Positions 6,181-30,914 are shown, numbered from the stretch's first letter. The stretch is 64,000 nucleotides of DNA from GCF_058153355.1 NZ_CM177019.1; one strand, 5' to 3'. Notes: a model not told the origin generated them from the sequence alone. Program-made: numbers and translations.

Positions 6181-8493
6181 ATGTCCTCAGAAGGATTACG
6201 TTTCACGCTGTCGGTGGCCGGTATCGTGGAGATGGCGACGGCGGTGGTGAGCTTCCGTCTGTACCAGCACCACTGCACGCCGTTCATCCTGGATGTGGAT
6301 ATCGCCAGCGGGCTGCCCGACCTGACGGCGGAGGATTTTCTGGAGAAGAGCGCGGTGCTGACGGTCTGGCAGGGTGATATCCCGCAGCGTTACGTCAGCG
6401 GTATCGTGACGGAGGTGCAGCTCGGTGAGAACAACGACTGGCAGATGCGTTATTCCCTGAGCATCAGCCCGCCGCTGTGGCGGGCAGGGTTACGGCAGAA
6501 CTTCCGTATCTTCCAGCAGCAGGACATTCAGACGATATCAGCACAGCTTCTGAGAGAGAACGGGGTGACGGCGTGGATGCCGCTGTTCTATGAGGCGCAC
6601 CCGGCGCGGGAGTTCTGCGTGCAGTACGGGGAGAGCGACCTGGCATTCCTGACCCGGCTGTGGGCGGAGGAAGGTATCTTCTTTTATGAGCGCTGCGGTC
6701 AGGAAGGGCCGGAGCAGAAGCTGGCGGTGTGTGATGACGTGGCGGGGCTGACGGGAATGGGGGCGCTGGCGTTTAACCCGAATACCACGACCGGGGGAAC
6801 GACGGAGTACATCAGTGAGTTTCGTTACCGTGCGCAGATAAGCGTGGCGTCGGTGGAGACGCAGGATTATACGTTCAAAACGCCGGGGTGGCCGGGGTAC
6901 TACAGCCATGACGGGGAGAGCCTGAACGGGCAGGGAACGCAGTACGAGATATTTGATTATCCGGGGCGTTTCAAGGATGAGCAGCATGGCCAGGATTTTG
7001 CGCGTTACCAGACGGAAGGGTGGCGGAACGGGGCGGAGACGGCGAGCGGGGTGTGTAACACGGCGCGGCTGTGGCCGGGAACGCGGTTCCGGCTGACGGG
7101 CCATCCCTCAGAGACGCTGAACCGGGAATGGCAGGTTGTGGGAAGCACACTGCGGGGAGAACAGCCGCAGGCGCTGCACGGGAGTCACGGTGAAGGGACG
7201 ACACTGAGCAATCAGTTTGAGGTGATACCGGCAGACAGGACGTGGCGTCACGCGCCGCTGCCGAAGCCGAAGGTGGACGGCCCGCAGAGTGCCATCGTGA
7301 CCGGGCCGAAGGGTGAGGAGATATTCTGCGACGAGCATGGCCGGGTACGGGTGAAGTTTCACTGGGACCGTTATCACGGGATGACGGAGGAGAGTTCGTG
7401 CTGGATACGGGTGTCGCAGGCATGGGCGGGACCGGGGTTCGGCAATCTGGCGATACCGCGTGTGGGTCAGGAAGTGATAGTGGACTTTCTGAACGGCGAC
7501 CCGGACCAGCCCATTGTGACGGGGCGGACCTACCATGAAGATAACCGTTCACCGGGGGATTTACCGGGCACGCGGACGCAGATGACCATCCGCTCGAAGA
7601 CCTATAAAGGAAGCGGCTTTAATGAACTGCGTTTCGAGGATGCGACGGACAGTGAGCAGGTGTATATCCACGCGCAGAAGAACATGGACACGGAGGTGCT
7701 TAACGACCGGACGACGGACGTGAAGCATGACCATACGGAGACCATCGGTAACGACCAGAAGATAAGGGTGGTGAAGGGGCAGACGGTTGAGGTCGGCACC
7801 AGAAAAGAAGGGGGTCACGACCAGAGTATCACGGTGGCGAACGACCGGCGCATAACGGTACGTAATGACCAGACGCTGAAGGTGACGAATGACCGGACGG
7901 TGAGCGTGAGTCACGATGACGGCCTGTATGTCAGAAACGACCGTAAAGTGACGGTGGAAGGGAAGCAGGAGCATAAGACGACGGGGAACCATATCAGCCT
8001 GGTGGAGGGAAAGCACAGTCTGGAGGTGAAGGGCGACCTGGCGGAGAAGGTGAGTGGCGCGCTGGGGATCAAGGTGGACGGGGATATCGTGCTGGAGAGC
8101 AGCAGCCGGATAAGCCTGAAAGTGGGCGGCTCGTTCGTGGTGATACACTCTGGCGGTGTGGATATTGCGGGGCCGAAGATAAACCTCAACGGGGGAGGCA
8201 GTCCGGGGACGCCAGTACAGACGTTACAACCGGTGGTACTGGAGGCGCTGGAGGATGAGAATGATGATGAGAACCCTGAAAAATATACTCTCCAGTTCCA
8301 TTTTACAGACGATGACGGGATACCGTATTCAGAGACACGCTACATTGCCTTCTTTGAGGACGGCACGCAGACGCGAGGGGAGACGGATGAAAATGGGTAT
8401 ACGGAAACATTCTCCACTGACAGCGAGCAGACAATCGAAGTCAGATTGTTGCATTTGAATATCGATATGATATGGGGAGGGATTAATGAATAG
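6181..8493 (+). CDS. vgrG: T6SS spike protein VgrG (copy 1) with C-terminal transthyretin-like extension
   Basis: N-terminus MSSEGLRFTLSV... typical of VgrG; GAGG RBS 5 nt upstream of the ATG at 6181 (the track ORF start at 6148 is an in-frame upstream ATG); gp27/gp5-like repeats; about 90 aa extension after the PKINLNGGGSPGTP end of the conserved core. Confidence 0.9.
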   Translation: MSSEGLRFTLSVAGIVEMATAVVSFRLYQHHCTPFILDVDIASGLPDLTAEDFLEKSAVLTVWQGDIPQRYVSGIVTEVQLGENNDWQMRYSLSISPPLWRAGLRQNFRIFQQQDIQTISAQLLRENGVTAWMPLFYEAHPAREFCVQYGESDLAFLTRLWAEEGIFFYERCGQEGPEQKLAVCDDVAGLTGMGALAFNPNTTTGGTTEYISEFRYRAQISVASVETQDYTFKTPGWPGYYSHDGESLNGQGTQYEIFDYPGRFKDEQHGQDFARYQTEGWRNGAETASGVCNTARLWPGTRFRLTGHPSETLNREWQVVGSTLRGEQPQALHGSHGEGTTLSNQFEVIPADRTWRHAPLPKPKVDGPQSAIVTGPKGEEIFCDEHGRVRVKFHWDRYHGMTEESSCWIRVSQAWAGPGFGNLAIPRVGQEVIVDFLNGDPDQPIVTGRTYHEDNRSPGDLPGTRTQMTIRSKTYKGSGFNELRFEDATDSEQVYIHAQKNMDTEVLNDRTTDVKHDHTETIGNDQKIRVVKGQTVEVGTRKEGGHDQSITVANDRRITVRNDQTLKVTNDRTVSVSHDDGLYVRNDRKVTVEGKQEHKTTGNHISLVEGKHSLEVKGDLAEKVSGALGIKVDGDIVLESSSRISLKVGGSFVVIHSGGVDIAGPKINLNGGGSPGTPVQTLQPVVLEALEDENDDENPEKYTLQFHFTDDDGIPYSETRYIAFFEDGTQTRGETDENGYTETFSTDSEQTIEVRLLHLNIDMIWGGINE

Positions 8494-8576
8494 AGAGTGA
8501 CCGCCTGTAATTGGCGTGTTTTTGCATAAATGGAACAGGGTTTTGTAGTGAAAACATATTGCTAAGGAGGATTTAT

Positions 8577-9422
8577 ATGGGAGATGGAAAGGGTAGTACG
8601 AGCGGAAAAAGCCAGAGCGGTGAACAGTGTGTAGTTTTAAAGGAGGGAAAAATTACTAATGATTTTAAAATAATGATGAGAGAGGCTCTGAAGGCGCTGA
8701 TGGCTGTATTGAAGAAAAGAGTAGAAGATCTTGGTGATAAATGGGGAGAGGAACAAAATCAGGAGTTTATAAATATATTTGGTATTGATGGAAATACTTA
8801 TATTAAATTAGAGTTCCCTTTCGGGGGGCGTAAGGTTATGTTTCCAGAGAATATAAAGGCAAGGGATTATATGAGAAATGGCGTTACTCGCCTGTATGAG
8901 ATATGTGGGGAATTATCTGTGGAAGGTGATTGTGTAGACGTTACTATTCATGACCATTTCCTCAAACGTGATGCCAATTGTAATCTTGTTCTTAATGACA
9001 AAGGGGGTAATGAATATGTTGACAAAGACGTAATCAGGCCCAAAACCGGTAACTTTGTGAATTGTACAGATAATGACGCTTATGCTGCCAATGTAACTTA
9101 CGATCAGATTTTGGGTGTAAAACCTGGAGGCTTTAAAAGTTTGGTAAGTATAACTATAGGACAAAGATTTATAGATAGGCCACCCACTGGGAAAAACTCT
9201 AAGGCATCGACACTCTGCCATGAACTATCTCACTTTATAAGGTACGGGGATTCATTTAAGTTTGGAGGCATGTGGACGGAAGATATGCCGGTAGATATAG
9301 AGTATAATACAGGTGACGAATATATTGTTCATGCCACTAAATTAAAAAATGATAAAAAATCAGAACTATTTCAGAATGCATATAATATCGAACGTTATTT
9401 CGAGATTCATGTACCATATTGA
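8577..9422 (+). CDS. hypothetical protein with HExxH zinc-metallopeptidase-like motif; candidate VgrG1 cargo effector
   Basis: ATG at 8577 preceded by AAGGAGG RBS; 281 aa; motif CHELSHF (HExxH) near the C-terminus followed by acidic NTGDEY; strongly AT-rich next to GC-rich vgrG; directly downstream of vgrG1. Confidence 0.6.
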   Translation: MGDGKGSTSGKSQSGEQCVVLKEGKITNDFKIMMREALKALMAVLKKRVEDLGDKWGEEQNQEFINIFGIDGNTYIKLEFPFGGRKVMFPENIKARDYMRNGVTRLYEICGELSVEGDCVDVTIHDHFLKRDANCNLVLNDKGGNEYVDKDVIRPKTGNFVNCTDNDAYAANVTYDQILGVKPGGFKSLVSITIGQRFIDRPPTGKNSKASTLCHELSHFIRYGDSFKFGGMWTEDMPVDIEYNTGDEYIVHATKLKNDKKSELFQNAYNIERYFEIHVPY

Positions 9423-9446
9423 TGCTTTTATTTGACGGGGGAGTAT

Positions 9447-10355
9447 ATGCTTGCTAGATGGATTGTTTTTATTGTTTTTTTTGCGCATCCAATATTTGCT
9501 TATGATATCTCTGGCGATTATGCTGTTCATTACAGATATGGGAAGTTATATTGGAATGGAGTAATGGACAAACTTGGTGTCTATCCTCGTGTAGAGCCGA
9601 CAAGGCTTAATTATTATGATTATTATGATGATCTTTCAGCCTATGCTGTTTTTCAATATTATACTATCAGTAAAAATGAGAGTCAGTATAATCAAGATAA
9701 AAATAAAATATATCTTCATCTTTCCGTGCATCAGAAAGAAAATATTGTAGCAGCTGCAGTGGTTTTATCGAATAAAAGCCAGGGATCTTATTTTGTTCAT
9801 CGACTAACTCTTCCTCTTGACGTTAACGGCGGGCCTTACTCTTCCTTGTGTAGTGGTGTGTTTATACCGATAATGGATAACATTCAGTTGGATTTTTTAA
9901 AAAAAACAAAATGTAGCTTTGGTGAATGGAAAAATAAATCCGTTTGGCACGAGATATTAACAGGGAAAGAGCTATCCTTTGATGTCATATTGAACGATTA
10001 TTATGCCTTTTTACCGGGCATTCATCGTTATAATATAGGAACGGTAGAATTTACAATAGTTAATCAAGAGTGGTTTACAGAACAATGTATATATGAGTAT
10101 TTTCTTTCTATTATGAACTGGCGGGCAGAAAGTGAGTGTACTAATCCTATAGATAAAATAAGATATGGTATAGAGGAGTGGCGGGTTTGGAGAATTTGTG
10201 GACCTTATCGTGGGTCAGGTCTATTTCAGGATTTTTTAGCACGCTTTGGCTATCATGGCGGTAATGATAATATATTCAAAATAAGATCAAATCAGGTTGT
10301 GGTTACTATTGATGGGGATAGGGCATCTCCTCCTTATTCGTTGAGGAATTATTAA
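9447..10355 (+). CDS. hypothetical secreted protein (N-terminal signal peptide); candidate immunity or partner of the upstream HExxH protein
   Basis: ATG at 9447 with GGGGGAG RBS; N-terminus MLARWIVFIVFFAHPIFA is a typical Sec signal peptide; Tyr/Trp-rich, AT-rich; starts 25 nt after the stop of the previous gene. Confidence 0.55.
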   Translation: MLARWIVFIVFFAHPIFAYDISGDYAVHYRYGKLYWNGVMDKLGVYPRVEPTRLNYYDYYDDLSAYAVFQYYTISKNESQYNQDKNKIYLHLSVHQKENIVAAAVVLSNKSQGSYFVHRLTLPLDVNGGPYSSLCSGVFIPIMDNIQLDFLKKTKCSFGEWKNKSVWHEILTGKELSFDVILNDYYAFLPGIHRYNIGTVEFTIVNQEWFTEQCIYEYFLSIMNWRAESECTNPIDKIRYGIEEWRVWRICGPYRGSGLFQDFLARFGYHGGNDNIFKIRSNQVVVTIDGDRASPPYSLRNY

Positions 10356-10510
10356 TGTTAACTTATTGTCATGGCTACAATTCGTTGGTTTTCCTGTTGA
10401 GATGATAATATATATGAGAAAAACAGGCAATGAACCAGTGAGAGAATATCAGAAGATACGGTCAACATCGGTTAATTACTTTTTCCTGTAGCGATACCAG
10501 GGAGGTCATC

Positions 10511-12712
10511 ATGTCATTAAAAGGGCTGCGCTTTACGCTGACGGTGGACGGACTGGTGCCGGAGACGTTTGCGGTGGTGGATTTCCGCCTCACGCAGGCA
10601 TACTCATCGCCGTTCGTCCTGGATGTGGACGTTGCCAGCGACTCGTTCCGCCAGACGGCGGAGAAGCTGCTGGAGAAGGGGGCCGTACTGACCATCTGGC
10701 AGGGTGGCACGGCGCTGCGTTATGTGAGCGGTGTGGTGTCGGGGTTCGGCATGAAGGAGCACAACGGCTGGCAGATGCAGTACCACCTTCAGATACGTCC
10801 GCCCCTGTGGCGCAGCGGGCTGCGCCAGAACTACCGAATCTTCCAGCAGCAGGACATTCAGGCCATCTCCGCCACGCTGTTAAACGAGGACGGAGTGACG
10901 CAGTGGACGCCGCGCTTTTATGAGAGCCACCCGGCACGGGAGTTCTGCGTCCAGTACGGTGAAAGCGACATGGCGTTTCTGACCCGGCTGTGGGCGGGGG
11001 AAGGCATCTTCTTTTATGACAGATACGCTGACGACAGCCCGGAGCAGACGCTCACGCTGTGCGATGATGTGGCGGGCCTGCCGGTGTACGGGGAGATACC
11101 GTTTAACCCGAACACCCGTGAGGTGACGACGGCGTGCATCAGCCTGTTCCGCTACCAGGCGCAGGTGCGGCCCTCGCAGGTGCGTTCAAAAGACCACACG
11201 TTTAAGGTGCCGGACTGGCCGGGTATTTACATTGAGGATGCTGAAAACCTCAACGGGCAACTGAAGCAGTACAAAATCCTGGACTGGCCGGGGCGCTACA
11301 AGGACGAGCAGCATGGTCAGGACTTTACCCGCTACCGGCTGGAAGGGCTGCGTAACAGTGCTGAAACCGCCACAGGTATCAGTAACTCCCCGGCGCTGTG
11401 GCCGGGACGGCGGTTCACCTTGACGGGGCATCCGGTACAGGGAGCGAACCCGAACCGTGAGTGGCAGGTGGTGAGCAGCACGCTGACGGGGAGCCAGCCG
11501 CAGGCGCTGCACGGGAGTCACGGTGAAGGGACGACACTGAGCAATCAGTTTGAGGTGATACCGGCAGACAGGACGTGGCGTCACGCGCCGCTGCCGAAGC
11601 CGAAGGTGGACGGCCCGCAGAGTGCCATCGTGACCGGGCCGAAGGGTGAGGAGATATTCTGCGACGAGCATGGCCGGGTACGGGTGAAGTTTCACTGGGA
11701 CCGTTATCACGGGATGACGGAGGAGAGTTCGTGCTGGATACGGGTGTCGCAGGCATGGGCGGGACCGGGGTTCGGCAATCTGGCGATACCGCGTGTGGGT
11801 CAGGAAGTGATAGTGGACTTTCTGAACGGCGACCCGGACCAGCCCATTGTGACGGGGCGGACCTACCATGAAGATAACCGTTCACCGGGGGATTTACCGG
11901 GCACGCGGACGCAGATGACCATCCGCTCGAAGACCTATAAAGGAAGCGGCTTTAATGAACTGCGTTTCGAGGATGCGACGGACAGTGAGCAGGTGTATAT
12001 CCACGCGCAGAAGAACATGGACACGGAGGTGCTTAACGACCGGACGACGGACGTGAAGCATGACCATACGGAGACCATCGGTAACGACCAGAAGATAAGG
12101 GTGGTGAAGGGGCAGACGGTTGAGGTCGGCACCAGAAAAGAAGGGGGTCACGACCAGAGTATCACGGTGGCGAACGACCGGCGCATAACGGTACGTAATG
12201 ACCAGACGCTGAAGGTGACGAATGACCGGACGGTGAGCGTGAGTCACGATGACGGCCTGTATGTCAGAAACGACCGTAAAGTGACGGTGGAAGGGAAGCA
12301 GGAGCATAAGACGACGGGGAACCATATCAGCCTGGTGGAGGGAAAGCACAGTCTGGAGGTGAAGGGCGACCTGGCGAGGAAGATTACCGGTGCGCTGGGA
12401 ATGAAGGTCCGGAATGAAATCGTACTGGAGAGTGGCGGTAAAATCACCCTAAAGGTGGGTGGTTCGTTTGTGGTCATCCATTCAGGGGGCGTGGACATCG
12501 TCGGGCCGAAAATCAATCTCAATAGCGGCGGTAGTCCGGGAACGCCGGTGCCGACGCTACGACCGGCGGTTTTGAAAGCGCTGGCAGATTATGACAATGG
12601 CGGACCTGGAACTGAAGGGGCGGAGCCACCACGGAAAAGTGTACAGGAAGCCTTTGATCCTCCCCAGCAGGATAAGGTACCGCCACAACGGCCGGGAAGA
12701 TTCTCACGATAA
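10511..12712 (+). CDS. vgrG: T6SS spike protein VgrG (copy 2) with short Pro-rich C-terminal tail
   Basis: 733-aa ORF, N-terminus MSLKGLRFTLTVDGL...; central about 0.88 kb is nucleotide-identical to vgrG1; GGAGG RBS upstream. Confidence 0.92.
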   Translation: MSLKGLRFTLTVDGLVPETFAVVDFRLTQAYSSPFVLDVDVASDSFRQTAEKLLEKGAVLTIWQGGTALRYVSGVVSGFGMKEHNGWQMQYHLQIRPPLWRSGLRQNYRIFQQQDIQAISATLLNEDGVTQWTPRFYESHPAREFCVQYGESDMAFLTRLWAGEGIFFYDRYADDSPEQTLTLCDDVAGLPVYGEIPFNPNTREVTTACISLFRYQAQVRPSQVRSKDHTFKVPDWPGIYIEDAENLNGQLKQYKILDWPGRYKDEQHGQDFTRYRLEGLRNSAETATGISNSPALWPGRRFTLTGHPVQGANPNREWQVVSSTLTGSQPQALHGSHGEGTTLSNQFEVIPADRTWRHAPLPKPKVDGPQSAIVTGPKGEEIFCDEHGRVRVKFHWDRYHGMTEESSCWIRVSQAWAGPGFGNLAIPRVGQEVIVDFLNGDPDQPIVTGRTYHEDNRSPGDLPGTRTQMTIRSKTYKGSGFNELRFEDATDSEQVYIHAQKNMDTEVLNDRTTDVKHDHTETIGNDQKIRVVKGQTVEVGTRKEGGHDQSITVANDRRITVRNDQTLKVTNDRTVSVSHDDGLYVRNDRKVTVEGKQEHKTTGNHISLVEGKHSLEVKGDLARKITGALGMKVRNEIVLESGGKITLKVGGSFVVIHSGGVDIVGPKINLNSGGSPGTPVPTLRPAVLKALADYDNGGPGTEGAEPPRKSVQEAFDPPQQDKVPPQRPGRFSR

Positions 12713-12721
12713 GGACTGAAC

Positions 12722-15211
12722 ATGAAAATCAGCCATCCCATCAGGGATAAAGAAGGCAAAGAGTTTCGCTCACTGGATGAGATAATGCGGCTTATTGACA
12801 AAGAAGCGCACGGAACCTGGCTGCTGGGTGGAAACGGGCTGTGGCACGGCGGGATACATATCAGTGACGTGTCTAATCCGTTATCAGCCCTGAAACCGGA
12901 TACCGCCGCTACCGGAGAACCGGTTCCTCTTCAGTTTATGGCCGATGGCACCATTGCGGCGTACCGGATAAATAATGATTACCTGAAAGGCCCCTACAAA
13001 GGGCAGCAACTCCGTTACAGCAGCACATTTGTTCTGGTGAAATCGCAGTGCCAGCCAGACCCGCAAAAAAAAGAAAGCTGGCTGGAATTTTACTGTCTCT
13101 ATATGCATCTGGCCCCGGTGAACGATTATCCCGGCTCCCCCTGCTATAAAGTTAAAACCGGGCATGGTGGCATATTGCTGCACCGATACATCCCGGGAAA
13201 GAACGGCCTTCCCGAGGGGCAGGAAAGCGGAGATCATGCCACGTACTGGATACCCCCGAAAATCAGCGGAAACAGGACACTTAATGCGGGAGATCGGTTT
13301 GTGTCATCCCGGACCGGACGTTTTTACGTGACCAATAACGGCCAGCCGGTCCTGACGACATTCGGACTGGTTCGCCTGCTGGAAGGCAATAAACCGGGGA
13401 ATGAGCAGTACTGGGTGACCCTGGATCCGGATCTGATGGAGTCAGATGGCGAAATACAGATGCTGATGCCTGAGTGGATGCAGAAGGCGAAGGCAAAAGG
13501 CATTTTTGACTCGGTACAGACGGTCGACGAAACGGAAGAGTGGAAAGTCAGTGCCGGAACACCGGTCGGATTTATGGGATGCGAGGATTATCCTGGCGAG
13601 GGAAGCGGTGAGATTGAGCGCGAGTGGTTCGTCCATCTGGAGGTTCTGAGTACAGACCCGAATATGCCAAAGTTCTTATCCAACCCGGCAGGCGTTAAGG
13701 GAGAAAAACGGACTGTTCTGGCACCAAAAGGGATAATTTTATACACCCGGCAGGCCGTTCCGGGACAGGAGGTATTTACCGCAACCGCAGCCACGCTGGG
13801 TGCTCAGCGCGTTCTTCCGCGGGAAGCCACGACACCAGTCACGGATGAATCGCAGCAGTGGTGGTTTAATATCACCGGAACCGGCTGGCTGCCACAAAAG
13901 GATGTTGAAGAGGCCGGACAGTATGATTTACTGAAGCTGGGTTTTCAACCGCTGGAGGAGAACAGCAGCGGTGACATGACGTACAGCCCGTACGAAGGAT
14001 GGGTGCCGGAAGCGTTTGACTCAATAAGCCGTGCCGCAGAACAGGGAGATGAGTGGCTGTATGAGCAGGTACCGCCCTTTTATCGTGAGCTGATGGCGGG
14101 TATGGATCAGGACGGTGATGGAAAAGTGACGGAGGAAGAGATCAGACAGGCGCTGATCGTGCGTGAACCACTGGTGAGAAATGTGGTGAATCATCTGATA
14201 GTTAAACACCACAGCGAATGGTACGGAGGGCGCTCGACAGGGCGGTGGGAAGGATTTTATAAAGATCTGGATACAGAGGAAGTGGCATACTGTGAGAAGT
14301 GGCAGCTGGATCTGGAGTGGATGAGCGGGGTATCTCCGTTTAATAGTGATGATGCTGTGTGGCATTTTCATCCGGTTGTGTTTTTGGACGCTATTAATTC
14401 CAAATCTGTGTGTGCTTGCAACAGAGATATAACATTAGATGAATTAAAAAAAGTTGCTCCTGCAGTAAGTGAAGGTCTTCTCAAAAGGTACCTCTACGAT
14501 ATAAATGCAGGGTTTATTCGGTTTGGTATGACCACTTGTAGAGAAAAAGCCCATTTTCTTGCTCAAATTATTCACGAGAGCGGTTATTTTAGATATACCA
14601 AAGAAATTAATGGTGAATCAGCTTCATATAGTCCGTGGTATGGCCGAGGCTTAATACAAGTTACAGGCGAAAGTAATTACACCGCCTATGGGGAATATAT
14701 CAATGAGGACGTAACATCTTCAGATTCCGCAAGAGATAAACTCATATCCTCCCCACATTGCGTATTATCTGCGTTTTGGTATTTCAATATATTCAAAAGA
14801 ATAAATGAAGATGCTAAAAATGATGATTTTAATAAAATTACAGTAGTGATTAATGGAGGGTATAATCATTATGATGAACGGTTGTCGATATTTAATAAAT
14901 TGGTTACCTCACTTGCTGCCGAGCATTTAAATCAGAAAGAAATGAACGACGATTTCTTGTTTGATGATAGTGACGTATATGATAATAAAGTATATGCTTT
15001 GGGATGGGGGATATGGCATGATCCTGATAGCTCCCGAAGAGGGACGATCAAGAGTAACGAAGAAGCATTAAAAGGTTATAGAAGGGCGAAAGAATTAATT
15101 GACCTGCATCCGTTTCCTCAGGAAGGGCGTGAGGGTGATAGAAAAGTATATGGAATAGAAAAAAGGAATATATCCACATTTGTAGAGAGACGAATAACTG
15201 AACTGGAGTAA
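12722..15211 (+). CDS. modular T6SS effector candidate: unknown N-terminal domain, EF-hand, C-terminal GH19 (chitinase/lysozyme-like) peptidoglycan hydrolase domain
   Basis: 829-aa ORF 9 nt after the vgrG2 stop; canonical EF-hand loop DQDGDGKVTEEE; C-terminal motifs AHFLAQIIHESG and YGRGLIQVTGESNY match GH19-family catalytic signatures; the C-terminal third is AT-rich compared with the N-terminal part. Confidence 0.75.
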   Translation: MKISHPIRDKEGKEFRSLDEIMRLIDKEAHGTWLLGGNGLWHGGIHISDVSNPLSALKPDTAATGEPVPLQFMADGTIAAYRINNDYLKGPYKGQQLRYSSTFVLVKSQCQPDPQKKESWLEFYCLYMHLAPVNDYPGSPCYKVKTGHGGILLHRYIPGKNGLPEGQESGDHATYWIPPKISGNRTLNAGDRFVSSRTGRFYVTNNGQPVLTTFGLVRLLEGNKPGNEQYWVTLDPDLMESDGEIQMLMPEWMQKAKAKGIFDSVQTVDETEEWKVSAGTPVGFMGCEDYPGEGSGEIEREWFVHLEVLSTDPNMPKFLSNPAGVKGEKRTVLAPKGIILYTRQAVPGQEVFTATAATLGAQRVLPREATTPVTDESQQWWFNITGTGWLPQKDVEEAGQYDLLKLGFQPLEENSSGDMTYSPYEGWVPEAFDSISRAAEQGDEWLYEQVPPFYRELMAGMDQDGDGKVTEEEIRQALIVREPLVRNVVNHLIVKHHSEWYGGRSTGRWEGFYKDLDTEEVAYCEKWQLDLEWMSGVSPFNSDDAVWHFHPVVFLDAINSKSVCACNRDITLDELKKVAPAVSEGLLKRYLYDINAGFIRFGMTTCREKAHFLAQIIHESGYFRYTKEINGESASYSPWYGRGLIQVTGESNYTAYGEYINEDVTSSDSARDKLISSPHCVLSAFWYFNIFKRINEDAKNDDFNKITVVINGGYNHYDERLSIFNKLVTSLAAEHLNQKEMNDDFLFDDSDVYDNKVYALGWGIWHDPDSSRRGTIKSNEEALKGYRRAKELIDLHPFPQEGREGDRKVYGIEKRNISTFVERRITELE

Positions 15212-15216
15212 TTGAT

Positions 15217-15627
15217 ATGAAAGTTAATTTATTGGTTTTACTGTTTTGTTTGGTGCCTTGTTGTTTATTGGCTAAACAACAAACAACGGTAGGCTGTTTT
15301 AGCGCTGGGAAAACAAATTTAAAGTTTGTTGAAATATCGTCTGGCGATATTTTTTTAGGTTATGTGATTTATGAGAAATCCTCAAAATTTATACCTCTTG
15401 CGTTTATAAATAAATTAGAAGTGACTTTCGATGACAGGCCTTCTGAATTTTCTTATGCATGGAGCGAGGTTGTAAATGGAAAAATTAATGGGTTGTATGT
15501 TGTTTCCACACAAGGTGCAAGATTTAATTTGTTTCATTATAAATCAATAAGTGGGAAAACAACTGAGTTTGAAGAAAATATTGAGGCATATAATGATGAT
15601 GGTACTGATTGCAAATGGACTGGATGA
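15217..15627 (+). CDS. putative periplasmic immunity protein for the GH19-type effector
   Basis: 136-aa ORF starting 6 nt after the effector stop; N-terminal signal peptide MKVNLLVLLFCLVPCCLLA; AT-rich like the toxin domain. Confidence 0.6.
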   Translation: MKVNLLVLLFCLVPCCLLAKQQTTVGCFSAGKTNLKFVEISSGDIFLGYVIYEKSSKFIPLAFINKLEVTFDDRPSEFSYAWSEVVNGKINGLYVVSTQGARFNLFHYKSISGKTTEFEENIEAYNDDGTDCKWTG

Positions 15628-15789: not shown

Positions 15790-17070
15790 AAAGATCACGT
15801 AACGCTGCTTTTTTGTACTATACAATTCGCATTTTATGTTTGAAAATTGAGATATTCCTCATTACCTGAAGCTGTTTTTTATTGCTTATACATGATCAAA
15901 TACTCCTTACATAATTAAGGAGAACAAAATGGTACTTAAAAAATTGATGGAACATATTTCTATTATCCCCGATTACAGACAAGCCTGGAAAGTGGAACAT
16001 AAATTATCGGATATTCTACTGTTGACTATTTGCGCCGTTATTTCGGGTGCAGAAGGCTGGGAAGATATAGAGGATTTTGGGGAAACACATCTCGATTTTT
16101 TGAAGCAATATGGTGATTTTGAAAATGGTATTCCTGTTCACGATACCATTGTCAGAGTTGTATCCTGTATCAGTCCTGCAAAATTTCACGAGTGCTTTAT
16201 TAACTGGATGCGTGACTGCCATTCTTCAGATGATAAAGGCGTCATTGCAATTGATGGAAAAACGCTCCGGCACTCTTATGACAAGAGTCGCCGCAGGGGA
16301 GCGATTCATGTCATTAGTGCGTTCTCAACAATGCACAGTCTGGTCATCGGACAGATCAAGACGGATGAGAAATCCAATGAGATTACAGCTATCCCAGAAC
16401 TTCTTAACATGCTGGATATTAAAGGAAAAATCATCACAACTGATGCGATGGGTTGCCAGAAAGATATTGCAGAGAAGATACAAAAACAGGGAGGTGATTA
16501 TTTATTCGCGGTAAAAGGAAACCAGGGGCGGCTAAATAAAGCCTTTGAGGAAAAATTTCCGCTGAAAGAATTAAATAATCCAGATCATGACAGTTAAGCG
16601 ATTAGTGAAAAGAGTCACGGCAGAGAAAAAATCCGTCTTCATATTGTTTGCGATGTCCCTGATGAACTTATTGATTTCACGTTTGAATGGAAAGGTCTGA
16701 AGAAATTATGCGTGGCAGTCTCCTTTCGGTTAATAATAGCAGAACAAAAGAAAGAGCCAGAAATGACGGTCAGATATTATATCAGTTCTGCTGATTTAAC
16801 CGCAGAGAAGTTCGCCACAGCAATCCGAAACCACTGGCACGTGGAGAATAAGCTGCACTGGCGTCTGGACGTGGTAATGAATGAAGACGACTGCAAAATA
16901 AGAAGAGGAAACGCCGCAGAATTATTTTCAGGGATACGGCACATCGCTATTAATATTTTAACGAATGATAAGGTATTCAAGGCAGGGTTAAGACGTAAGA
17001 TGCGAAAAGCAGCCATGGACAGAAACTATCTCGCGTCAGTCCTTGCGGGGAGCGGGCTTTCGTAATCTTG
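15790..17070 (+). mobile_element. H-repeat (H-rpt) element, ISAs1 family, nearly full length
   Basis: Encodes the H-repeat-associated transposase-like protein; its 5' end, including about 140 bp upstream of the ATG, recurs at 19865-20290 and in degenerate form at 21975-22635; element boundaries are approximate. Confidence 0.75.
15929..17065 (+). pseudogene. ISAs1-family (H-repeat-associated) transposase, interrupted by a single in-frame TAA
   Basis: ORFs 15929-16597 and 16712-17065 are in the same frame (669 and 114 nt offsets are multiples of 3) and separated only by TAA at 16598-16600; combined length about 378 codons, the size of intact H-rpt proteins. Confidence 0.75.
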
Positions 17071-17075
17071 CCCTG

Positions 17076-19492
17076 GAGGTGATACCGGCGGACAGGACGT
17101 GGCGTCACGCGCCCCTGCCGAAGCCGAAGGTGGACGGCCCGCAGAGTGCCATCGTGACCGGGCCGAAGGGCGAGGAGATATTCTGCGACGAGCATGGCCG
17201 GGTACGGGTGAAGTTTCACTGGGACCGTTATCACGGGATGACGGAGGAGAGTTCATGCTGGATACGGGCGTCGCAGGCATGGGCGGGACCGGGGTTCGGC
17301 AATCTGGCGATACCGCGTGTGGGTCAGGAAGTGATAGTGGACTTTCTGAACGGCGACCCGGACCAGCCCATTGTGACGGGGCGGACATACCATGAGGACA
17401 ACCGTTCACCGGGGGATTTACCGGGCACGCGGACGCAGATGACCATCCGCTCGAAGACCTATAAAGGAAGCGGCTTTAATGAACTGCGTTTCGAGGATGC
17501 GACGGACAGTGAGCAGGTGTATATCCACGCGCAGAAGAACATGGACACGGAGGTGCTTAACGACCGGACGACGGACGTGAAGCATGACCATACGGAGACC
17601 ATCGGTAACGACCAGAAGATAAGGGTGGTGAAGGGGCAGACGGTTGAGGTCGGCACCAGAAAAGAAGGGGGTCACGACCAGAGTATCACGGTGGCGAACG
17701 ACCGGCGCATAACGGTACGTAATGACCAGACGCTGAAGGTGACGAATGACCGGACGGTGAGCGTGAGTCACGATGACGGCCTGTATGTCAGAAACGACCG
17801 TAAAGTGACGGTGGAAGGGAAGCAGGAGCATAAGACGACGGGGAACCATATCAGTCTGGTGGAGGGAACGCACAGTCTGGAGGTGAAGGGCGACCTGGCG
17901 AGGAAGATTACCGGTGCGCTGGGAATGAAGGTCCGGGATGAAATCGTACTGGAGAGTGGTGGTAAAATCACCCTGAAGTGGGTGGCTCGTTTGTGGTCGT
18001 TCATTCTGGTGGTGTGGATATTGTCGGACCGAAAATAAATCTGAATTGCGGGCGCAGTCCGGGGACGCCGATAAATACACTACAACCGGCAGTTATGGAC
18101 GCTCTGGCTGACGAGCAGTATGACAGAGGGAATGCTGGCGGCGGGAATGACGGAGAGCCTAGTGATGAGGATGAATCAGAAGGTGGAGAAGAAGACAAGG
18201 ACGATTCAGATGAACTGGTAATTCCTGTATACGCAAAATCTTGTCTGAAGGAGAAAGGCTGCACTGATGCTGGTACGACCATGGAGCCATCGAAACATTT
18301 TGGTGATATGGCTCTATTTGCCCAGCCAGTGGAGGATGACTGTTGCGGCTATGGTACACACTATCATGACGATGAAGTGGAGCAACTTGCGCAGTCAGCA
18401 AAAAAAACCTCAGGAGCGAACTCACTGACGGGGGAAATGACAGTTGCGTCAGCGGGTGTTGCGGTTCCACTAGCGGCGGAACAGTCTGCGGGAGTTTTAA
18501 CTCGCGTATGGGGAACATTAGGGGCATGGGGTGGAGAAGGTTTTTTAAGTGTATCAAAAACGGTGCCAGCCCTTGGTGTCCTAGTATCAGCACTATATCC
18601 AATACCTGCCGGTGAAGGTAGTGATAAAGTTCCTGGACGGGATGAACAGTGGCTCGAAAATGAGCTACGTCGTAAAGCGCAATCTGGAGAGACGGCAGCT
18701 ACGCGGGCGCGCTTTCTCTTTCAGCGGAATACTGCTGGTGAATTGAGGACATACGGATACCACACACCCGCAGGTTCGGAACTTGAAGGTGTTCGGGTAG
18801 CATTGATGGAGTGGAATAAGGAATTTTCCCGTTATGAATTTTCACCTGTGTCTGATTCGGGACCAAAAATATTTTGGACGCCTGCAAAGCCAGAAGGTTC
18901 AGAGCAGCCCATACACACCGGAACTCCTGTCGAACCAGTTGATCTACCTGATATTTATGTTAATCCGATACCCGATGAAAAAACAGATATCACCACGCCG
19001 CCTTCTCCAATGCCGGAGGAGCGAAATTTTAATGACTGGATACTTGTCTTTCCTGACGGTGCGGAATTAACACCAATATATGTGTATCTGAAAACTGCAA
19101 GGGATGTAGCGGGAACAGTAACAGGTAAGGGGGAGGTGTTAGCAGGTACAGGAAGATGGCTGTCGCAGGCGGGGAAAAGCTTAGGAGTGCCAATTCCACA
19201 ACAGGTCGCAAATAAACTTCGGAGTAAGTCATTTAACAATTTTGATGAATTCATGGCAGCTTTCTGGACTGCTGTAGGTGAATGTCCAGAACTATTGAGC
19301 CAATTTAATAAAGCTAACCAAACGTTGATAAAGCGTGGACGCGCACCTTATACTATATCAAGACAAAGAGTTGGGGGGCGAGGTACATTTGAAATTCATC
19401 ATATTGACGAAATCCAATATGGGGGAGAAGTCTATGATATTGATAATCTTAGAGTAAACACACCTAAAAACCACATACGATTGCATAAATAA
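17076..19492 (+). pseudogene. 5'-truncated, frameshifted vgrG (copy 3) fused to colicin E9-like HNH DNase toxin domain
   Basis: vgrG homology begins abruptly at about 17076, right after the H-rpt end, so the N-terminal half is missing; a 1-nt deletion near 17977 (ctgaagtgggtgg here, ctaaaggtgggtgg in vgrG2) splits the reading frame; C-terminal domain ...GRGTFEIHHIDEIQYGGEVYDIDNLRVNTPKNHIRLHK matches the colicin E9/E7 DNase HNH motif. Confidence 0.8.
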
Positions 19493-24735: not shown

Positions 24736-26649
24736 ATGTCATCCGATATTAAGATCAAAGTGCAAAGCTTTGGTCGTTTCCTCAGCAACATGGTGATGCC
24801 AAATATCGGCGCGTTTATCGCGTGGGGTATCATCACCGCGTTATTTATTCCAACAGGGTGGTTACCGAACGAAACGCTGGCGAAGCTGGTCGGGCCGATG
24901 ATCACTTATCTCCTGCCGCTGCTGATCGGTTATACCGGTGGTAAGCTGGTAGGCGGCGAACGTGGCGGCGTAGTCGGTGCCATCACCACCATGGGCGTTA
25001 TCGTCGGCGCAGATATGCCGATGTTCCTCGGTTCTATGATTGCAGGTCCGCTGGGCGGCTGGTGCATTAAGCACTTCGACCGCTGGGTAGACGGTAAGAT
25101 CAAATCCGGTTTTGAGATGCTGGTGAATAACTTCTCCGCTGGCATCATCGGGATGATCCTCGCTATTCTGGCGTTCCTCGGCATTGGCCCAATTGTTGAA
25201 GCCCTGTCCAAAATGCTGGCTGCGGGCGTTAACTTCATGGTTGTCCATGACATGCTGCCGCTGGCGTCTATCTTTGTTGAACCGGCGAAAATCCTGTTCC
25301 TCAACAACGCCATTAACCACGGTATCTTCTCGCCGCTGGGTATTCAGCAGTCCCATGAACTGGGTAAATCCATCTTCTTCCTGATTGAAGCTAACCCAGG
25401 TCCGGGTATGGGTGTTCTGCTGGCGTACATGTTCTTTGGCCGTGGTAGCGCTAAACAGTCTGCGGGCGGTGCGGCAATCATTCACTTCCTGGGGGGTATC
25501 CACGAAATCTACTTCCCGTATGTGCTGATGAATCCGCGTCTGATCCTGGCCGTTATCCTCGGTGGTATGACTGGCGTATTCACGCTGACTATCCTGGGCG
25601 GTGGTCTGGTTTCACCGGCATCTCCGGGTTCTATCCTTGCTGTACTGGCAATGACACCAAAAGGTGCTTACTTCGCTAACATCGCGGGTGTGTGTGCGGC
25701 GATGGCAGTCTCCTTCGTTGTCTCTGCTATTTTGCTGAAAACCAGCAAAGTGAAAGAAGAAGATGACATTGAAGCAGCAACGCGTCGTATGCAGGACATG
25801 AAAGCTGAATCTAAAGGTGCATCTCCGCTGTCTGCTGGCGATGTGACTAACGACCTGAGCCACGTCCGTAAAATCATCGTTGCCTGTGATGCCGGTATGG
25901 GTTCCAGTGCGATGGGCGCAGGTGTGCTGCGTAAGAAAATTCAGGATGCAGGTCTGTCGCAGATTTCTGTTACTAACAGCGCGATCAACAACCTGCCGCC
26001 AGATGTGGACCTGGTCATCACTCACCGTGACCTGACCGAACGCGCTATGCGCCAGGTTCCGCAGGCACAGCATATTTCGCTGACCAACTTCCTCGACAGC
26101 GGCCTGTACACCAGCCTGACCGAACGTCTGGTTGCTGCCCAGCGCCATACTGAAAACGAAGTAAAAGTGAAAGACAGTCTGAAAGACAGCTTTGACGATT
26201 CCAGTGCTAACCTGTTCAAACTGGGCGCGGAGAACATCTTCCTTGGTCGCAAAGCGGCAACCAAAGAAGAAGCGATTCGTTTTGCTGGCGAGCAGCTGGT
26301 GAAAGGCGGTTACGTTGAGCCGGAATACGTTCAGGCGATGCTGGATCGTGAAAAACTGACCCCGACCTATCTGGGTGAGTCTATCGCGGTGCCGCACGGT
26401 ACGGTTGAAGCGAAAGACCGCGTACTGAAAACGGGCGTGGTGTTCTGCCAGTACCCGGAAGGCGTGCGCTTCGGTGAAGAAGAAGATGACATTGCCCGCC
26501 TGGTGATTGGTATTGCTGCCCGTAACAACGAGCACATTCAGGTGATCACCAGCCTGACCAATGCACTGGATGATGAGTCCGTCATCGAGCGTCTGGCGCA
26601 CACCACCAGCGTGGATGAAGTGCTGGAACTGCTGGCAGGTCGTAAGTAA
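24736..26649 (+). CDS. mtlA: PTS mannitol-specific EIICBA component
   Basis: 637-aa ORF; membrane EIIC domain followed by EIIB and EIIA domains; precedes mtlD and mtlR. Confidence 0.95.
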   Translation: MSSDIKIKVQSFGRFLSNMVMPNIGAFIAWGIITALFIPTGWLPNETLAKLVGPMITYLLPLLIGYTGGKLVGGERGGVVGAITTMGVIVGADMPMFLGSMIAGPLGGWCIKHFDRWVDGKIKSGFEMLVNNFSAGIIGMILAILAFLGIGPIVEALSKMLAAGVNFMVVHDMLPLASIFVEPAKILFLNNAINHGIFSPLGIQQSHELGKSIFFLIEANPGPGMGVLLAYMFFGRGSAKQSAGGAAIIHFLGGIHEIYFPYVLMNPRLILAVILGGMTGVFTLTILGGGLVSPASPGSILAVLAMTPKGAYFANIAGVCAAMAVSFVVSAILLKTSKVKEEDDIEAATRRMQDMKAESKGASPLSAGDVTNDLSHVRKIIVACDAGMGSSAMGAGVLRKKIQDAGLSQISVTNSAINNLPPDVDLVITHRDLTERAMRQVPQAQHISLTNFLDSGLYTSLTERLVAAQRHTENEVKVKDSLKDSFDDSSANLFKLGAENIFLGRKAATKEEAIRFAGEQLVKGGYVEPEYVQAMLDREKLTPTYLGESIAVPHGTVEAKDRVLKTGVVFCQYPEGVRFGEEEDDIARLVIGIAARNNEHIQVITSLTNALDDESVIERLAHTTSVDEVLELLAGRK

Positions 26650-26990
<341 letters not shown>

Positions 26991-27012
26991 AACATTGATG
27001 AAGGTTAATACT

Positions 27013-28161
27013 ATGAAAGCATTACATTTTGGCGCAGGTAATATCGGTCGTGGCTTTATCGGTAAACTGCTGGCAGACGCAGGTATCCAACTGACGTTTG
27101 CCGATGTCAATCAGGTGGTACTTGATGCCCTGAATGCCCGTCATAGCTATCAGGTTCATGTGGTCGGTGAAACCGAGCAGGTAGATACCGTTTCTGGCGT
27201 CAATGCTGTCAGCAGCATTGGTGATGATGTCGTTGAGCTGATTGCTCAGGTTGATTTAGTCACTACCGCCGTGGGCCCGGTTGTGCTGGAACGTATTGCT
27301 CCGGCAATCGCCAAAGGGCTGGTGAAACGTAAAGAACAAGGTAATGAATCCCCGCTGAACATTATCGCCTGTGAAAACATGGTACGCGGCACCACGCAGC
27401 TGAAAGGCCATGTGATGAACGCCCTGCCAGAAGACGCCAAAGCGTGGGTAGAAGAACACGTTGGCTTTGTGGACTCTGCCGTTGACCGCATCGTACCGCC
27501 TTCCGCTTCGGCAACGAACGATCCGCTGGAAGTGACAGTCGAAACCTTCAGCGAATGGATTGTCGATAAAACTCAGTTCAAAGGTGCACTGCCGAACATC
27601 CCAGGCATGGAGTTAACCGACAACCTGATGGCATTTGTTGAGCGTAAACTCTTCACCCTGAATACAGGTCATGCTATAACCGCGTACCTCGGAAAACTGG
27701 CGGGTCATCAGACCATTCGTGACGCGATTCTCGACGCGAAAATCCGCGCGGTGGTAAAAGGTGCGATGGAAGAAAGCGGCGCTGTACTGATTAAGCGTTA
27801 CGGTTTTGACGCGGACAAACATGCGGCGTACATCCAGAAAATCCTTGGTCGTTTTGAAAACCCGTATCTGAAAGACGATGTAGAGCGCGTAGGCCGTCAG
27901 CCGCTGCGTAAACTGAGTGCTGGCGACCGTCTGATCAAGCCACTGCTCGGAACGCTGGAATATGGTCTGCCACATAAAAACCTGATTGAAGGTATTGCCG
28001 CTGCAATGCACTTCCGCAGTGAAGATGATCCGCAGGCTCAGGAACTGGCAGCACTGATTGCCGACAAAGGCCCGCAAGCCGCACTGGCGCAGATTTCTGG
28101 CCTTGATGCTAACAGCGAGGTTGTATCCGAGGCGGTAACCGCTTATAAAGCAATGCAATAA
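27013..28161 (+). CDS. mtlD: mannitol-1-phosphate 5-dehydrogenase
   Basis: Starts [15 protein letters not shown] (Rossmann motif) at ATG 27013; the longer track ORF begins inside the REP cluster and is not the real start. Confidence 0.95.
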
Positions 28162-28748
28162 TGGTGGACCAGGCGCAGGACTCCCTGCGCCCGAATAACA
28201 GATTGTCAGATATGCAGGCAACAATGGAACAAACCCAGGCCTTTGAAAACCGTGTGCTTGAGCGTCTGAATGCTGGCAAAACCGTGCGAAGCTTTCTGAT
28301 TACCGCCGTCGAGCTTTTGACCGAGGCGGTAAATCTTCTGGTGCTTCAGGTATTCCGCAAAGACGATTACGCGGTGAAGTATGCTGTAGAACCGTTACTC
28401 GACGGCGATGGCCCGCTGGGCGATCTTTCTGTGCGTTTAAAACTCATTTACGGGTTGGGTGTCATTAACCGCCATGAATATGAAGATGCGGAACTGCTGA
28501 TGGCATTGCGTGAAGAACTAAATCACGACGGCAATGAGTACGCCTTTACCGACGATGAAATTCTTGGCCCCTTTGGTGAGCTGCACTGTGTGGCGGCGTT
28601 ACCACCGCCGCCACAGTTTGAACCCGCAGACTCCAGTTTGTATGCAATGCAAATTCAGCGTTACCAACAGGCTGTGCGATCAACAATGGTCCTTTCACTG
28701 ACAGAGCTGATTTCCAAAATCAGCTTAAAAAAAGCCTTTCAAAAGTAA
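28161..28748 (+). CDS. mtlR: mannitol operon repressor MtlR
   Basis: 195-aa ORF immediately after mtlD. Confidence 0.9.
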   Translation: MVDQAQDSLRPNNRLSDMQATMEQTQAFENRVLERLNAGKTVRSFLITAVELLTEAVNLLVLQVFRKDDYAVKYAVEPLLDGDGPLGDLSVRLKLIYGLGVINRHEYEDAELLMALREELNHDGNEYAFTDDEILGPFGELHCVAALPPPPQFEPADSSLYAMQIQRYQQAVRSTMVLSLTELISKISLKKAFQK

Positions 28749-28758
28749 GTACTTTCGC

Positions 28759-28968
28759 TTACTTCTCCTCTACCTGTTTCGGCCGATAAAGCCGACGATA
28801 ATACTCCAGACGTTGTAGATATAACGGCACGCTTTCATCAGGTATTCCGGACGGAATCGCATTGCGGGGAGGAAGTTTTTTCAGATACTCCCGGAACGCC
28901 TGGCTCGATGCCATGAAATCTACAGCTTTATCGATAAGAAGCGGAACGTTTTCACCTAATTTGCCCAT
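28759..28968 (-). CDS. yibT: small protein YibT
   Basis: 69-aa ORF convergent with mtlR. Confidence 0.75.
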
Positions 28969-29251
28969 GATGATATCTCCGTATTACCCCGCGCCGGGAA
29001 TGCGCGGCCGCCAATTTTAGTTTAGATCCCGGTATAAATGACATTAAGGAAAACGTGCTCAATCCTCAATAATGATCCTCTTCTGTTGTCTATCTTTTTT
29101 CTTTAAATTTCCTAACTAATCAATAGATTGGGTGATTTTCAAACACATTAATGGTTACAATCTGGAACTATTACAATGCCATCTGTTGTGAACAAAGCAC
29201 CTGGTCGCGCATACTAGAGGCTATAAATTTATCTCTATCAGAAGTCATCAC

Positions 29252-30871: not shown

Positions 30872-30914
30872 ATGCAGCTTCTGCGCTTATATCAAGGAAT
30901 AGAGAACATCAATA

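Follow-up and report, generated by a model that had tools for sequence, protein, structure and literature searches.

What do the two AT-rich genes that lie directly 3' of vgrG1 encode? These genes occupy positions 8577 to 10355 of the 64,000-nucleotide stretch of GCF_058153355.1 NZ_CM177019.1 that was analysed here (hereafter, the window). An initial annotation, made from the sequence alone, regarded them as a metallopeptidase-type toxin with a periplasmic partner, could not assign the toxin to a known family, and took the pair to be undescribed. The toxin-partner view is supported by profile and fold matches to M35 peptidases and by a tested homologous pair, with 46% and 44% identity for the two proteins; the other two statements do not hold. 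We consider it very likely that the cassette is a cargo effector-immunity pair of a type VI secretion system (T6SS), judging this allele from its sequence, its predicted folds and the homologous pair. The effector appears to be a divergent M35/aspzincin peptidase, and the core of the exported immunity protein is related, by profile and predicted fold, to the propeptide of such enzymes.

8577..9422, + strand: effector gene; 281 amino acids (aa), predicted divergent M35/aspzincin zinc endopeptidase without a signal peptide, the N-terminal 23 residues of which are modelled as disordered
9447..10355, + strand: immunity gene; 302 aa, predicted exported protein with a propeptide-like beta-sandwich, an N-terminal extension and an insertion

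Both open reading frames (ORFs) are intact. The ribosome-binding site (RBS) of the effector gene is AAGGAGG at 8564-8570, and that of the immunity gene is GGGGGAG, located 5 nt upstream of the start codon. The GC content is 0.374 in the effector gene and 0.349 in the immunity gene, compared with 0.590 in vgrG1, 0.598 in vgrG2 and 0.488 in the whole window; the two linked AT-rich genes described initially are thus confirmed by both ORFs and composition. A scan for promoters and terminators gave nothing above shuffled expectation. Proteins identical to the two products are on record in NCBI, as EGO8355110.1 ('peptidase [Escherichia coli]') for the effector and EGO8355111.1 for the partner.

A homologous pair tested in E. 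coli PAR

A 2023 study (Commun Biol, PMC10673891) tested AKO63_2955 (M35^PAR) and AKO63_2956 of E. coli PAR as a T6SS effector and its immunity protein. M35^PAR is toxic when expressed from pET22b, which targets it to the periplasm, and co-expression of AKO63_2956 restores growth; moreover, M35^PAR binds VgrG only via a protein called DUF2345^PAR, a C-terminal fragment of VgrG (PMC10673891). The AKO63_2955 forward primer listed in the supplement of that paper is an exact match at position 10357 of the E. coli locus L005. Three more primers, translated by hand, encode ERYFEID, LYSSMQ and LGGVHE, each followed by a stop codon; the second effector of L005, its partner and its VgrG end in these peptides. 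Two published reverse primers have no match in L005 within 2-3 mismatches, because PAR carries a different allele; they agree at the protein level.

The window effector and the M35^PAR-type effector of L005 are 46% identical (E=4e-81), and the partners 44% identical (E=3e-84), in both cases over the full length. On these alignments, the window pair is thus not undescribed and adds a new allele to an already tested effector-immunity family. In Escherichia, Salmonella, Buttiauxella, Enterobacter and Citrobacter, homologous pairs are located immediately 3' of vgrG:

L003, Buttiauxella: vgrG and pair
L005, E. coli: two pairs within a T6SS cluster
L011, Enterobacter: vgrG and pair
L012, Citrobacter: vgrG and pair
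L013 and L014, metagenomes: vgrG and pair
L018, Salmonella: vgrG and pair

The effector start codon often overlaps the vgrG stop codon; a partner-family gene encoding 227-315 aa follows and, in several loci, a PAAR gene comes next. In the loci examined, the partner-family gene is always downstream of the M35-like gene. Effector and partner co-vary in their identity to the window pair, which is 59/66% in Salmonella, 46/44% for the PAR type and approximately 33-40/31-34% in the others.

Degenerate copies were also noticed. The Citrobacter farmeri pair is followed (L012 7826-9594) by a vgrG truncated to 391 aa and by a fragment of 121 aa that weakly matches Pfam Aspzincin_M35. E. coli commonly carries short fragments named 'peptidase M35' (P0082-P0087, 107-200 aa), which comprise up to 344 member sequences. 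Like those of C. farmeri, these pieces are remnants of decayed modules.

Effector family and fold

Pfam, NCBIfam, PHROGs and PADLOC searches with both proteins returned only a chance-level match to Peptidase_M43 (E=0.09). When searched against the PDB with phmmer, the effector sequence alone reached GfMEP, the peptidyl-Lys metalloendopeptidase of Grifola, at E=0.04, and a profile of the 14-member effector family gave E=4.2e-5 for GfMEP (1g12) and E=4.5e-4 for AsaP1, a toxin of Aeromonas. The AlphaFold2 model built on the 14-member alignment has a predicted local distance difference test (pLDDT) score of 82.3. The N-terminus is rich in Gly, Ser and Lys, and residues 1-23 fall below a pLDDT of 50. 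A Foldseek comparison of AlphaFold models had been proposed in the initial annotation. For the effector, all PDB matches at E<=1.3e-3 are either GfMEP (template modelling score 0.74 on the target) or AsaP1, with probability 1.0, and the next match stands at E=0.6. Sequence identity to GfMEP and AsaP1 is 15-18%.

Since the family-profile and fold matches are clear and the Pfam model PF14521 (Aspzincin_M35) is silent, the effector is best described as a member of a divergent M35/aspzincin subfamily that falls outside the current Pfam model, with predicted enzyme activity. PF14521 is present in fragments of effector relatives. Relatives have already been named 'M35 family metalloendopeptidase', 'peptidase M35' or 'Lysine-specific metallo-endopeptidase domain-containing protein' by PGAP and UniRef. 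The family comprises 82 clusters at 90% identity, and every organism named as a source belongs to the Enterobacteriaceae.

In the first homologue search, carried out with a single sequence, the best effector match was only 59% identical. The notion that the effector is nearly unique was rejected as a clustering artefact. Fused ORFs of 594 aa had placed effector and partner in one 90% cluster represented by a partner sequence (P0014), and close relatives of the effector were therefore hidden.

Active site of the effector

Residues were mapped on an alignment that included two canonical T6SS-linked M35 proteins and AsaP1, and GfMEP numbering is used for comparison.

9219..9233, + strand: HELSH codons (H215, E216, H219), equivalent to GfMEP H117/E118/H121; predicted to provide two zinc ligands and the catalytic base, and unchanged in 14/14 members of the family
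9276..9284, + strand: T234-E235-D236 (in WTEDMP), counterpart of the GTxD of aspzincins, with D236 predicted to be the third zinc ligand
9375..9404, + strand: NAYNIERYFE (residues 267-276), corresponding to the C-terminal NADNHEYF helix of M35 enzymes

The zinc ligands of GfMEP are H117, H121 and D130 (PMC3268031). In the effector, the first motif is CHELSHF (residues 214-220). D236 is invariant and T234 nearly so; the two residues align with T128 and D130 of GfMEP, as well as with GTDD of AsaP1 and GTED of L015. The consensus of the effector family, GGMGTDDMP, includes GTDD, and the window allele features Trp in place of Gly. The initial annotation was correct on the HExxH motif, on the Gly/Ser-rich N-terminus and in its suspicion of an aspzincin, which profile and Foldseek matches bear out, but the NTGDEY segment that it had singled out is an unconserved loop rather than a motif.

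In the C-terminal helix, Y269, N270, E272, Y274 and F275 are invariant in the enterobacterial family; once canonical M35 sequences are added, only E272 remains so. E272 aligns with GfMEP E157, which determines Lys preference in the S1' pocket, and Y269 replaces D154. Mutation E157D broadens the specificity of GfMEP from Lys to Arg (PMC11985622), and D154 is a second-shell residue that hydrogen-bonds His117 (PMC3268031). Because the P1'-lysine-binding residue of GfMEP is kept as E272, peptidyl-Lys-type specificity is likely for the effector. Either Y269 or Y274 might substitute for the Tyr found in the canonical aspzincin motif. We considered that the change from D154 to Y269 might denote an altered S1' pocket, co-varying with the loss of a 'KR' pair in the partner. 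This was rejected, as D154 is a second-shell residue and specificity is set by E157, which is kept (PMC11985622, PMC3268031).

A cysteine, C214 (9216-9218), immediately precedes the first catalytic His (LCHELSHF) and is invariant in the 14-member enterobacterial alignment. The equivalent residue is Cys in the canonical T6SS-linked M35 protein of L015 and Ala in that of L016; AsaP1 and GfMEP have no equivalent cysteine.

The immunity protein and its relationship to M35 propeptides

9447..9500, + strand: Sec-type signal peptide MLARWIVFIVFFAHPIFA, cut before YD (assigned by eye and alignment)
9672..10064, + strand: core domain of the partner (residues 76-206), homologous by profile and model to the M35 (AsaP1) propeptide

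The hydrophobic N-terminus is kept in partner homologues and is modelled as a helix spanning residues 2-12; the Sec signal peptide reported initially is confirmed by eye and by alignment. Four cysteines (C135, C156, C231 and C251) are conserved. The partner is predicted to be exported to the periplasm, the compartment in which the toxin would act.

None of the 78 members of the partner family matches Pfam. An exhaustive profile search yielded 148 representatives at 50% identity, approximately 60 of which are full-length. Many are short relatives (130-190 aa), whose match is confined to profile positions ~83-200. In the PDB, the sole match to a profile of the whole partner set is to residues 31-125 of AsaP1, corresponding to its propeptide (E=0.052). 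A profile of the short relatives matches AsaP1 residues 31-149 at E=1.7e-14, and hhalign connects the long enterobacterial family to the short relatives (probability 99.65, E=5.3e-25) over residues 76-206 of the window partner. The AlphaFold2 model of the partner has a pLDDT of 80.5. The top four PDB matches obtained with Foldseek are AsaP1 precursor chains (E=5.6e-6 to 2.6e-5, root-mean-square deviation 2.3-3.1 Å, ~112 columns), and in AFDB50, full-length precursors named 'Lysine-specific metallo-endopeptidase' are among the first matches beyond the family, at ~5e-8. As the partner is devoid of a catalytic domain, these matches can only be to the pro-region. By both profile and predicted fold, the partner core is homologous to the M35 propeptide, a relationship that the initial annotation had missed, and the pair therefore looks like a split zymogen. 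Bogdanovic and colleagues reportedly described, in 2016, inhibition by the AsaP1 propeptide.

The loop around C156 (partner residues 152-164, nt ~9900-9938) is rich in Lys (KKTKCSFGEWKNK). In short partner relatives and AsaP1, a conserved 'KR' is aligned with this loop; no single Lys is conserved in the long family. The loop is a candidate pseudo-substrate segment for a Lys-specific peptidase.

Partner genes also occur on their own. Tandem copies without an effector gene are found in L008, an enterobacterial metagenome contig in which two partner genes (304 and 312 aa) lie between ycfJ and comR (8001-11034). The array also holds two small genes (165 and 158 aa), vgrG and the peptidase gene are absent, and the whole looks like an immunity-only island. 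In L018, a second, divergent partner paralogue is located behind the cognate partner.

Short partner relatives have peptidase neighbours of their own. For instance, P0189 lies directly after a canonical Pfam Aspzincin_M35 gene, behind a DUF4123 adaptor and a vgrG-like gene (L015), and the product of the canonical gene matches the AsaP1 catalytic domain at E=4e-22. The metagenomic loci L015 (1782-3916) and L016 feature a vgrG-like gene, a DUF4123 adaptor, a 141-aa gene, a 206-aa Aspzincin_M35 and a 182-aa propeptide-like partner, the gene of which overlaps the end of the peptidase gene. This layout suggests a wider superfamily of T6SS M35 effectors that use a different loading route.

VgrG1 and its C-terminal module

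6181..8493, + strand: vgrG1; 770 aa from the ATG at 6181 (a longer ORF starts from the TTG at 6148), T6SS spike of the Gp5_trimer_C type
8281..8490, + strand: C-terminal module of ~70 aa, YTLQFHFTDDDGIPYSETRYIAFFEDGTQTRGETDENGYTETFSTDSEQTIEVRLLHLNIDMIWGGINE; proposed cargo-docking domain

VgrG1 matches NCBIfam TIGR03361 (E=7e-177) and the Pfam domains Phage_GPD, Phage_base_V and Gp5_trimer_C; DUF2345 is not significant in this protein (Pfam E=0.31). Genes 96-97% identical to vgrG1 are labelled tssI by PGAP. Pfam detects nothing in residues ~672-770. We aligned the C-termini of nine VgrGs, i.e., the eight VgrGs or VgrG fragments that precede family members and have an available 3' end, and VgrG2 of the window. 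All eight proteins preceding a family member end with the module (Y/F)N(I/L)QFxFxDDDG(I/V)PY...G(I/V)TDExGxTExF...(I/V)(E/D)VRLLxQNIDMIxGGVNE. The module is found both on Gp5_trimer_C-type spikes (VgrG1 of the window, L003, L011 and L012) and on DUF2345-type spikes (both L005 genes). In the same alignment, it is absent from VgrG2, which bears different cargo.

On this alignment, the feature that tracks M35 cargo is the ~70-aa module and not DUF2345, and the module is a putative docking site for the effector. The initial annotation had described a transthyretin (TTR)-like extension of VgrG1 that loads cargo. An extension that co-occurs with M35 cargo does exist, but the TTR-like label is weakly supported.

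The published DUF2345^PAR construct (AKO63_2954) begins at approximately residue 604 of an L005b-type VgrG and ends with LGGVHE; the module was therefore included. The construct corresponds to the last ~235 residues of that VgrG (L005 9657-10364), and the PAR vgrG therefore looks split. The reported DUF2345-M35 binding may in fact be binding between the module and M35.

Proposed mechanism

The effector would be made in the cytoplasm, devoid of a signal peptide, as a zinc enzyme with H215, H219 and D236 as metal ligands and E216 as the catalytic base. It would dock non-covalently on the VgrG1 spike, most probably via the ~70-aa C-terminal module, and be fired by the T6SS into the periplasm of neighbouring Gram-negative cells. 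There, it would probably act as a Lys-directed zinc endopeptidase that cuts envelope proteins. Protection of the producer and its kin would come from the Sec-exported partner, which would bind an arriving peptidase in trans and close off the active-site cleft, as AsaP1's own propeptide does in cis. The pair would thus represent a split zymogen, the catalytic domain of which became a toxin and the prodomain an antidote.

Several observations weigh against this interpretation. The effector has no match to PF14521 even at E<=10, and no NCBIfam match. The Tyr of the GTxDxxYG motif is missing, the position D236+3 being occupied by Val in the window and by Thr or Ile in relatives; with the change of D154 to Tyr, this means that activity or specificity could differ from those of the LysN enzymes. 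The direct link between the long partner family and AsaP1 is weak on its own (E=0.052), and becomes strong only via the short relatives and the predicted fold. The inhibitory contact of the partner is inferred by analogy with AsaP1 and from the rescue by AKO63_2956. The similarity of the VgrG1 module to the TTR region of VgrG1 of enteroaggregative E. coli (EAEC; PDB 6sjl residues 770-830) is weak (phmmer E=0.03). Finally, the 64-kb window contains no T6SS core genes, so that the strain may be unable to fire the effector.

Our confidence in the mode of inhibition and in the cleavage specificity is lower than in the effector-immunity assignment. The combined proposal is that the immunity protein is a split-off M35 prodomain that acquired its own signal peptide and acts by propeptide-style blockade, that the pair belongs to a wider, hitherto unrecognised superfamily including DUF4123-loaded Aspzincin_M35 effectors with propeptide-like partners of ~130-190 aa, and that a TTR-like module, rather than DUF2345, recruits the peptidase. 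We judge this proposal, taken jointly, to have a somewhat better than even chance of being correct. Neither the propeptide origin of the immunity protein nor module-based loading was found in the searchable literature, which is incomplete; both appear to be new.

Alternative explanations

The cassette could be a relic, decaying or out of use, within an orphan vgrG island that insertion sequences (ISs) have shaped, and no longer be delivered or active in this strain. The island is mosaic, with an ISAs1 element and a truncated vgrG downstream, and the lack of T6SS core genes in the window points in the same direction. Backbone genes, such as selA and yibF, match 5425 of 5426 complete E. coli genomes at ~96-98% identity. 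The cassette is rare, being found at 96% identity in three of the 5426 genomes, always at the same yibF-side site, and relatives show fusion of the two genes by loss of a stop codon. Relative to the 96%-identical allele of L002, the ratio of non-synonymous to synonymous substitution rates (dN/dS) is 0.23 in the immunity gene and a relaxed 0.55 in the effector gene, values that stem from only 29 substitutions per gene. However, both values are below 1, which we count as a sign of constraint; vgrG1 and both ORFs are intact and preceded by good RBSs; and all catalytic and family-invariant effector residues are kept, 0 of the 18 substitutions relative to L002 falling on them. A relic is therefore improbable, and we retain the effector-immunity reading.

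More doubtful still is the hypothesis that the main targets are eukaryotic proteins, of a host or a predator, and that the partner only guards against accidental periplasmic exposure. AsaP1, among the closest solved relatives, is a fish toxin described in PDB entries as an extracellular toxic endopeptidase, and VgrG2b, an unrelated metallopeptidase, has been proposed to act across kingdoms (PMC6899460). A dedicated periplasmic immunity gene that diversifies along with the effector, the orphan immunity arrays, and the periplasm-dependent toxicity of the homologue in E. coli all point instead to interbacterial use, of which a dual role would be a possible extension.

Protease propeptides are often intramolecular chaperones. 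The partner could hence be a trans-acting folding chaperone or activator of the peptidase, the producer being protected otherwise. Its homology to the M35 propeptide fits this notion, and propeptides aid the folding and expression of M35 enzymes (PMC11985622). Yet the partner carries a Sec signal and conserved cysteines, and the effector is signal-less and would be loaded on VgrG in the cytoplasm; with one protein exported and the other cytoplasmic, the two therefore cannot meet while the effector folds. In addition, partner genes occur without any peptidase gene, and the homologous AKO63_2956 neutralised toxicity (PMC10673891). We consider a chaperone role very unlikely and favour that of an immunity protein.

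The last alternative concerns the boundary between the two genes, which lie in one frame with a single TGA between them, an arrangement that the initial annotation had missed.

9420..9422, + strand: single in-frame TGA between effector and partner genes; TTA in E. coli N96 (L001 ~13020), giving a 594-aa fusion ORF

The N96 ORF is named 'M35 family metalloendopeptidase' by PGAP, and at least two distinct fused records exist, WP_000502244.1 (also present in Escherichia sp. TW15838) and WP_249822542.1. A single product of ~590 aa, as annotated in N96, obtained by TGA read-through or selenocysteine insertion, is suggested by the common frame, the fused 594-aa records and the adjoining selAB genes but can practically be dismissed, as N96 differs by a plain TGA>TTA point change, the stop is kept in the window and in two of the three complete genomes that match, four of eight related pairs have the partner in a different frame and most loci have a spacer of 50-170 nt (our calculation from gene coordinates), the partner has its own RBS and signal peptide, and a scan of 8300-10700 revealed no Rfam match, no riboswitch and no selenocysteine insertion sequence (SECIS) element. 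Because the stop is kept, the frames differ, the partner has its own RBS and Rfam/SECIS signals are missing, the effector-partner fusion is presumably derived. The internal RBS and start codon of the immunity gene remain in N96, so that the immunity protein may still be made there.

Neighbouring genes

A second cargo module (10511-15627) follows the cassette. It includes vgrG2, encoding a 733-aa protein with a Pro-rich tail and without the TTR-like module; a gene for a protein of 829 aa, in which Pfam detects an EF-hand (E=9e-4) and, weakly, a C-terminal region like glycoside hydrolase family 19 (GH19)/chitinases (E=0.07), and which PGAP calls 'chitinase' in N96; and a gene for a 136-aa protein with an apparent N-terminal signal peptide, assigned by eye. 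This module probably encodes a peptidoglycan-hydrolase effector and its immunity protein. Further downstream (15929-19492), there is an ORF for a transposase of the ISAs1 family. Behind it lie a 3' piece of a third vgrG (17043-18035), which aligns with just the final third of the VgrG model, and then an ORF of 504 aa, the C-terminal part of which gives a below-cutoff match (E=5e-65) to NF047924, the VPA1263-type T6SS antibacterial DNase. The region looks like a third spike-effector module truncated by the IS.

Beyond the island (24736-36862) come mtlA-mtlD-mtlR, an ORF for a trimeric autotransporter adhesin of 1571 aa (30915-35630) and a transposase of the IS110 family (35882-36862). At the yibF-side site, most E. 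coli genomes have an rhs element instead of the vgrG island.

Significance

The cassette does not represent a new toxin class, but a rare allele of an M35 effector-immunity family that is labelled in databases and has been tested in one paper. It points to a lysine-directed endopeptidase that would act in the Gram-negative periplasm. A prodomain turned trans inhibitor provides a testable origin and mechanism for the immunity protein, and predicts both a binding site for the partner and co-evolving surfaces. Propeptide-like partners could also serve as a search handle for other protease effectors. The conclusion that DUF2345 loads M35 (PMC10673891) merits re-examination, because the construct contained the module, and the module alone accompanies the cargo on a VgrG that lacks DUF2345.

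Comparison with known systems

The closest system is M35^PAR/AKO63_2956, which shares with the window pair both protein families, the gene order, and a vgrG ending in the same C-terminal module. The PAR pair belongs to a T6SS-1 cluster, whereas the window allele resides in a vgrG island at the yibF side, downstream of a Gp5_trimer_C-type spike that lacks DUF2345. The published study credits DUF2345 with loading, equates the toxin with the VgrG2b domain, calls both 'M35', and does not discuss the nature of the immunity protein (PMC10673891); neither the loading role nor the equation fits the data presented here.

The VgrG2b C-terminal domain and PA0261 of P. aeruginosa are alike in that a VgrG-delivered HExxH zinc peptidase is toxic only in the periplasm and is countered by an immunity protein with a signal peptide and a disulfide (PMC6899460). 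In contrast to the window effector, VgrG2b, for which a PDB structure exists, is annotated DUF4157 and is a thermolysin-like gluzincin in which a Glu (E983) serves as an additional zinc ligand (PMC6899460). Moreover, its peptidase forms part of the VgrG polypeptide instead of travelling as cargo, and it is paired with a small, unrelated immunity protein. Membership of the window effector in the VgrG2b/DUF4157 family was considered and rejected: the predicted third ligand is Asp, there is no DUF4157 match in Pfam, and VgrG2b is absent from the PDB profile and Foldseek matches.

The loading of Tle1 by the TTR domain of EAEC VgrG1 (6sjl) is similar in principle, as a C-terminal VgrG extension recruits a specific cargo encoded immediately downstream. 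There, however, the cargo is a phospholipase, and the similarity to the window module is marginal (E=0.03).

Free-standing, propeptide-derived protease inhibitors are used for self-protection elsewhere, as exemplified by streptococcal Spi, compared with the SpeB propeptide, and by MEROPS families I9 and I29. The logic of trans inhibition is the same, but the proteases belong to different clans. We know of no propeptide-derived inhibitor that is a T6SS immunity protein or an M35 prodomain.

AsaP1 of Aeromonas salmonicida (PDB 2x3a-c) and GfMEP/LysN of Grifola frondosa (1g12/1ge5-7), both in MEROPS family M35, share with the window effector the predicted fold, the HExxH motif, the Thr-x-Asp third ligand, the NA(D/Y)NxE(Y/R)(F/Y) helix and the S1' Glu. 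The effector differs from them in a beta-rich insertion of ~90 residues (residues ~75-165), in the loss of the GTxDxxYG Tyr and in the replacement of D154 by Y269; similarly, the partner differs from the AsaP1 propeptide in its N-terminal extension and an insertion of ~70 residues. The window peptidase is signal-less, and T6SS delivery would take the place of general secretion. In the window pair, unlike in AsaP1 and GfMEP, the pro-domain and the catalytic domain are encoded by separate genes.

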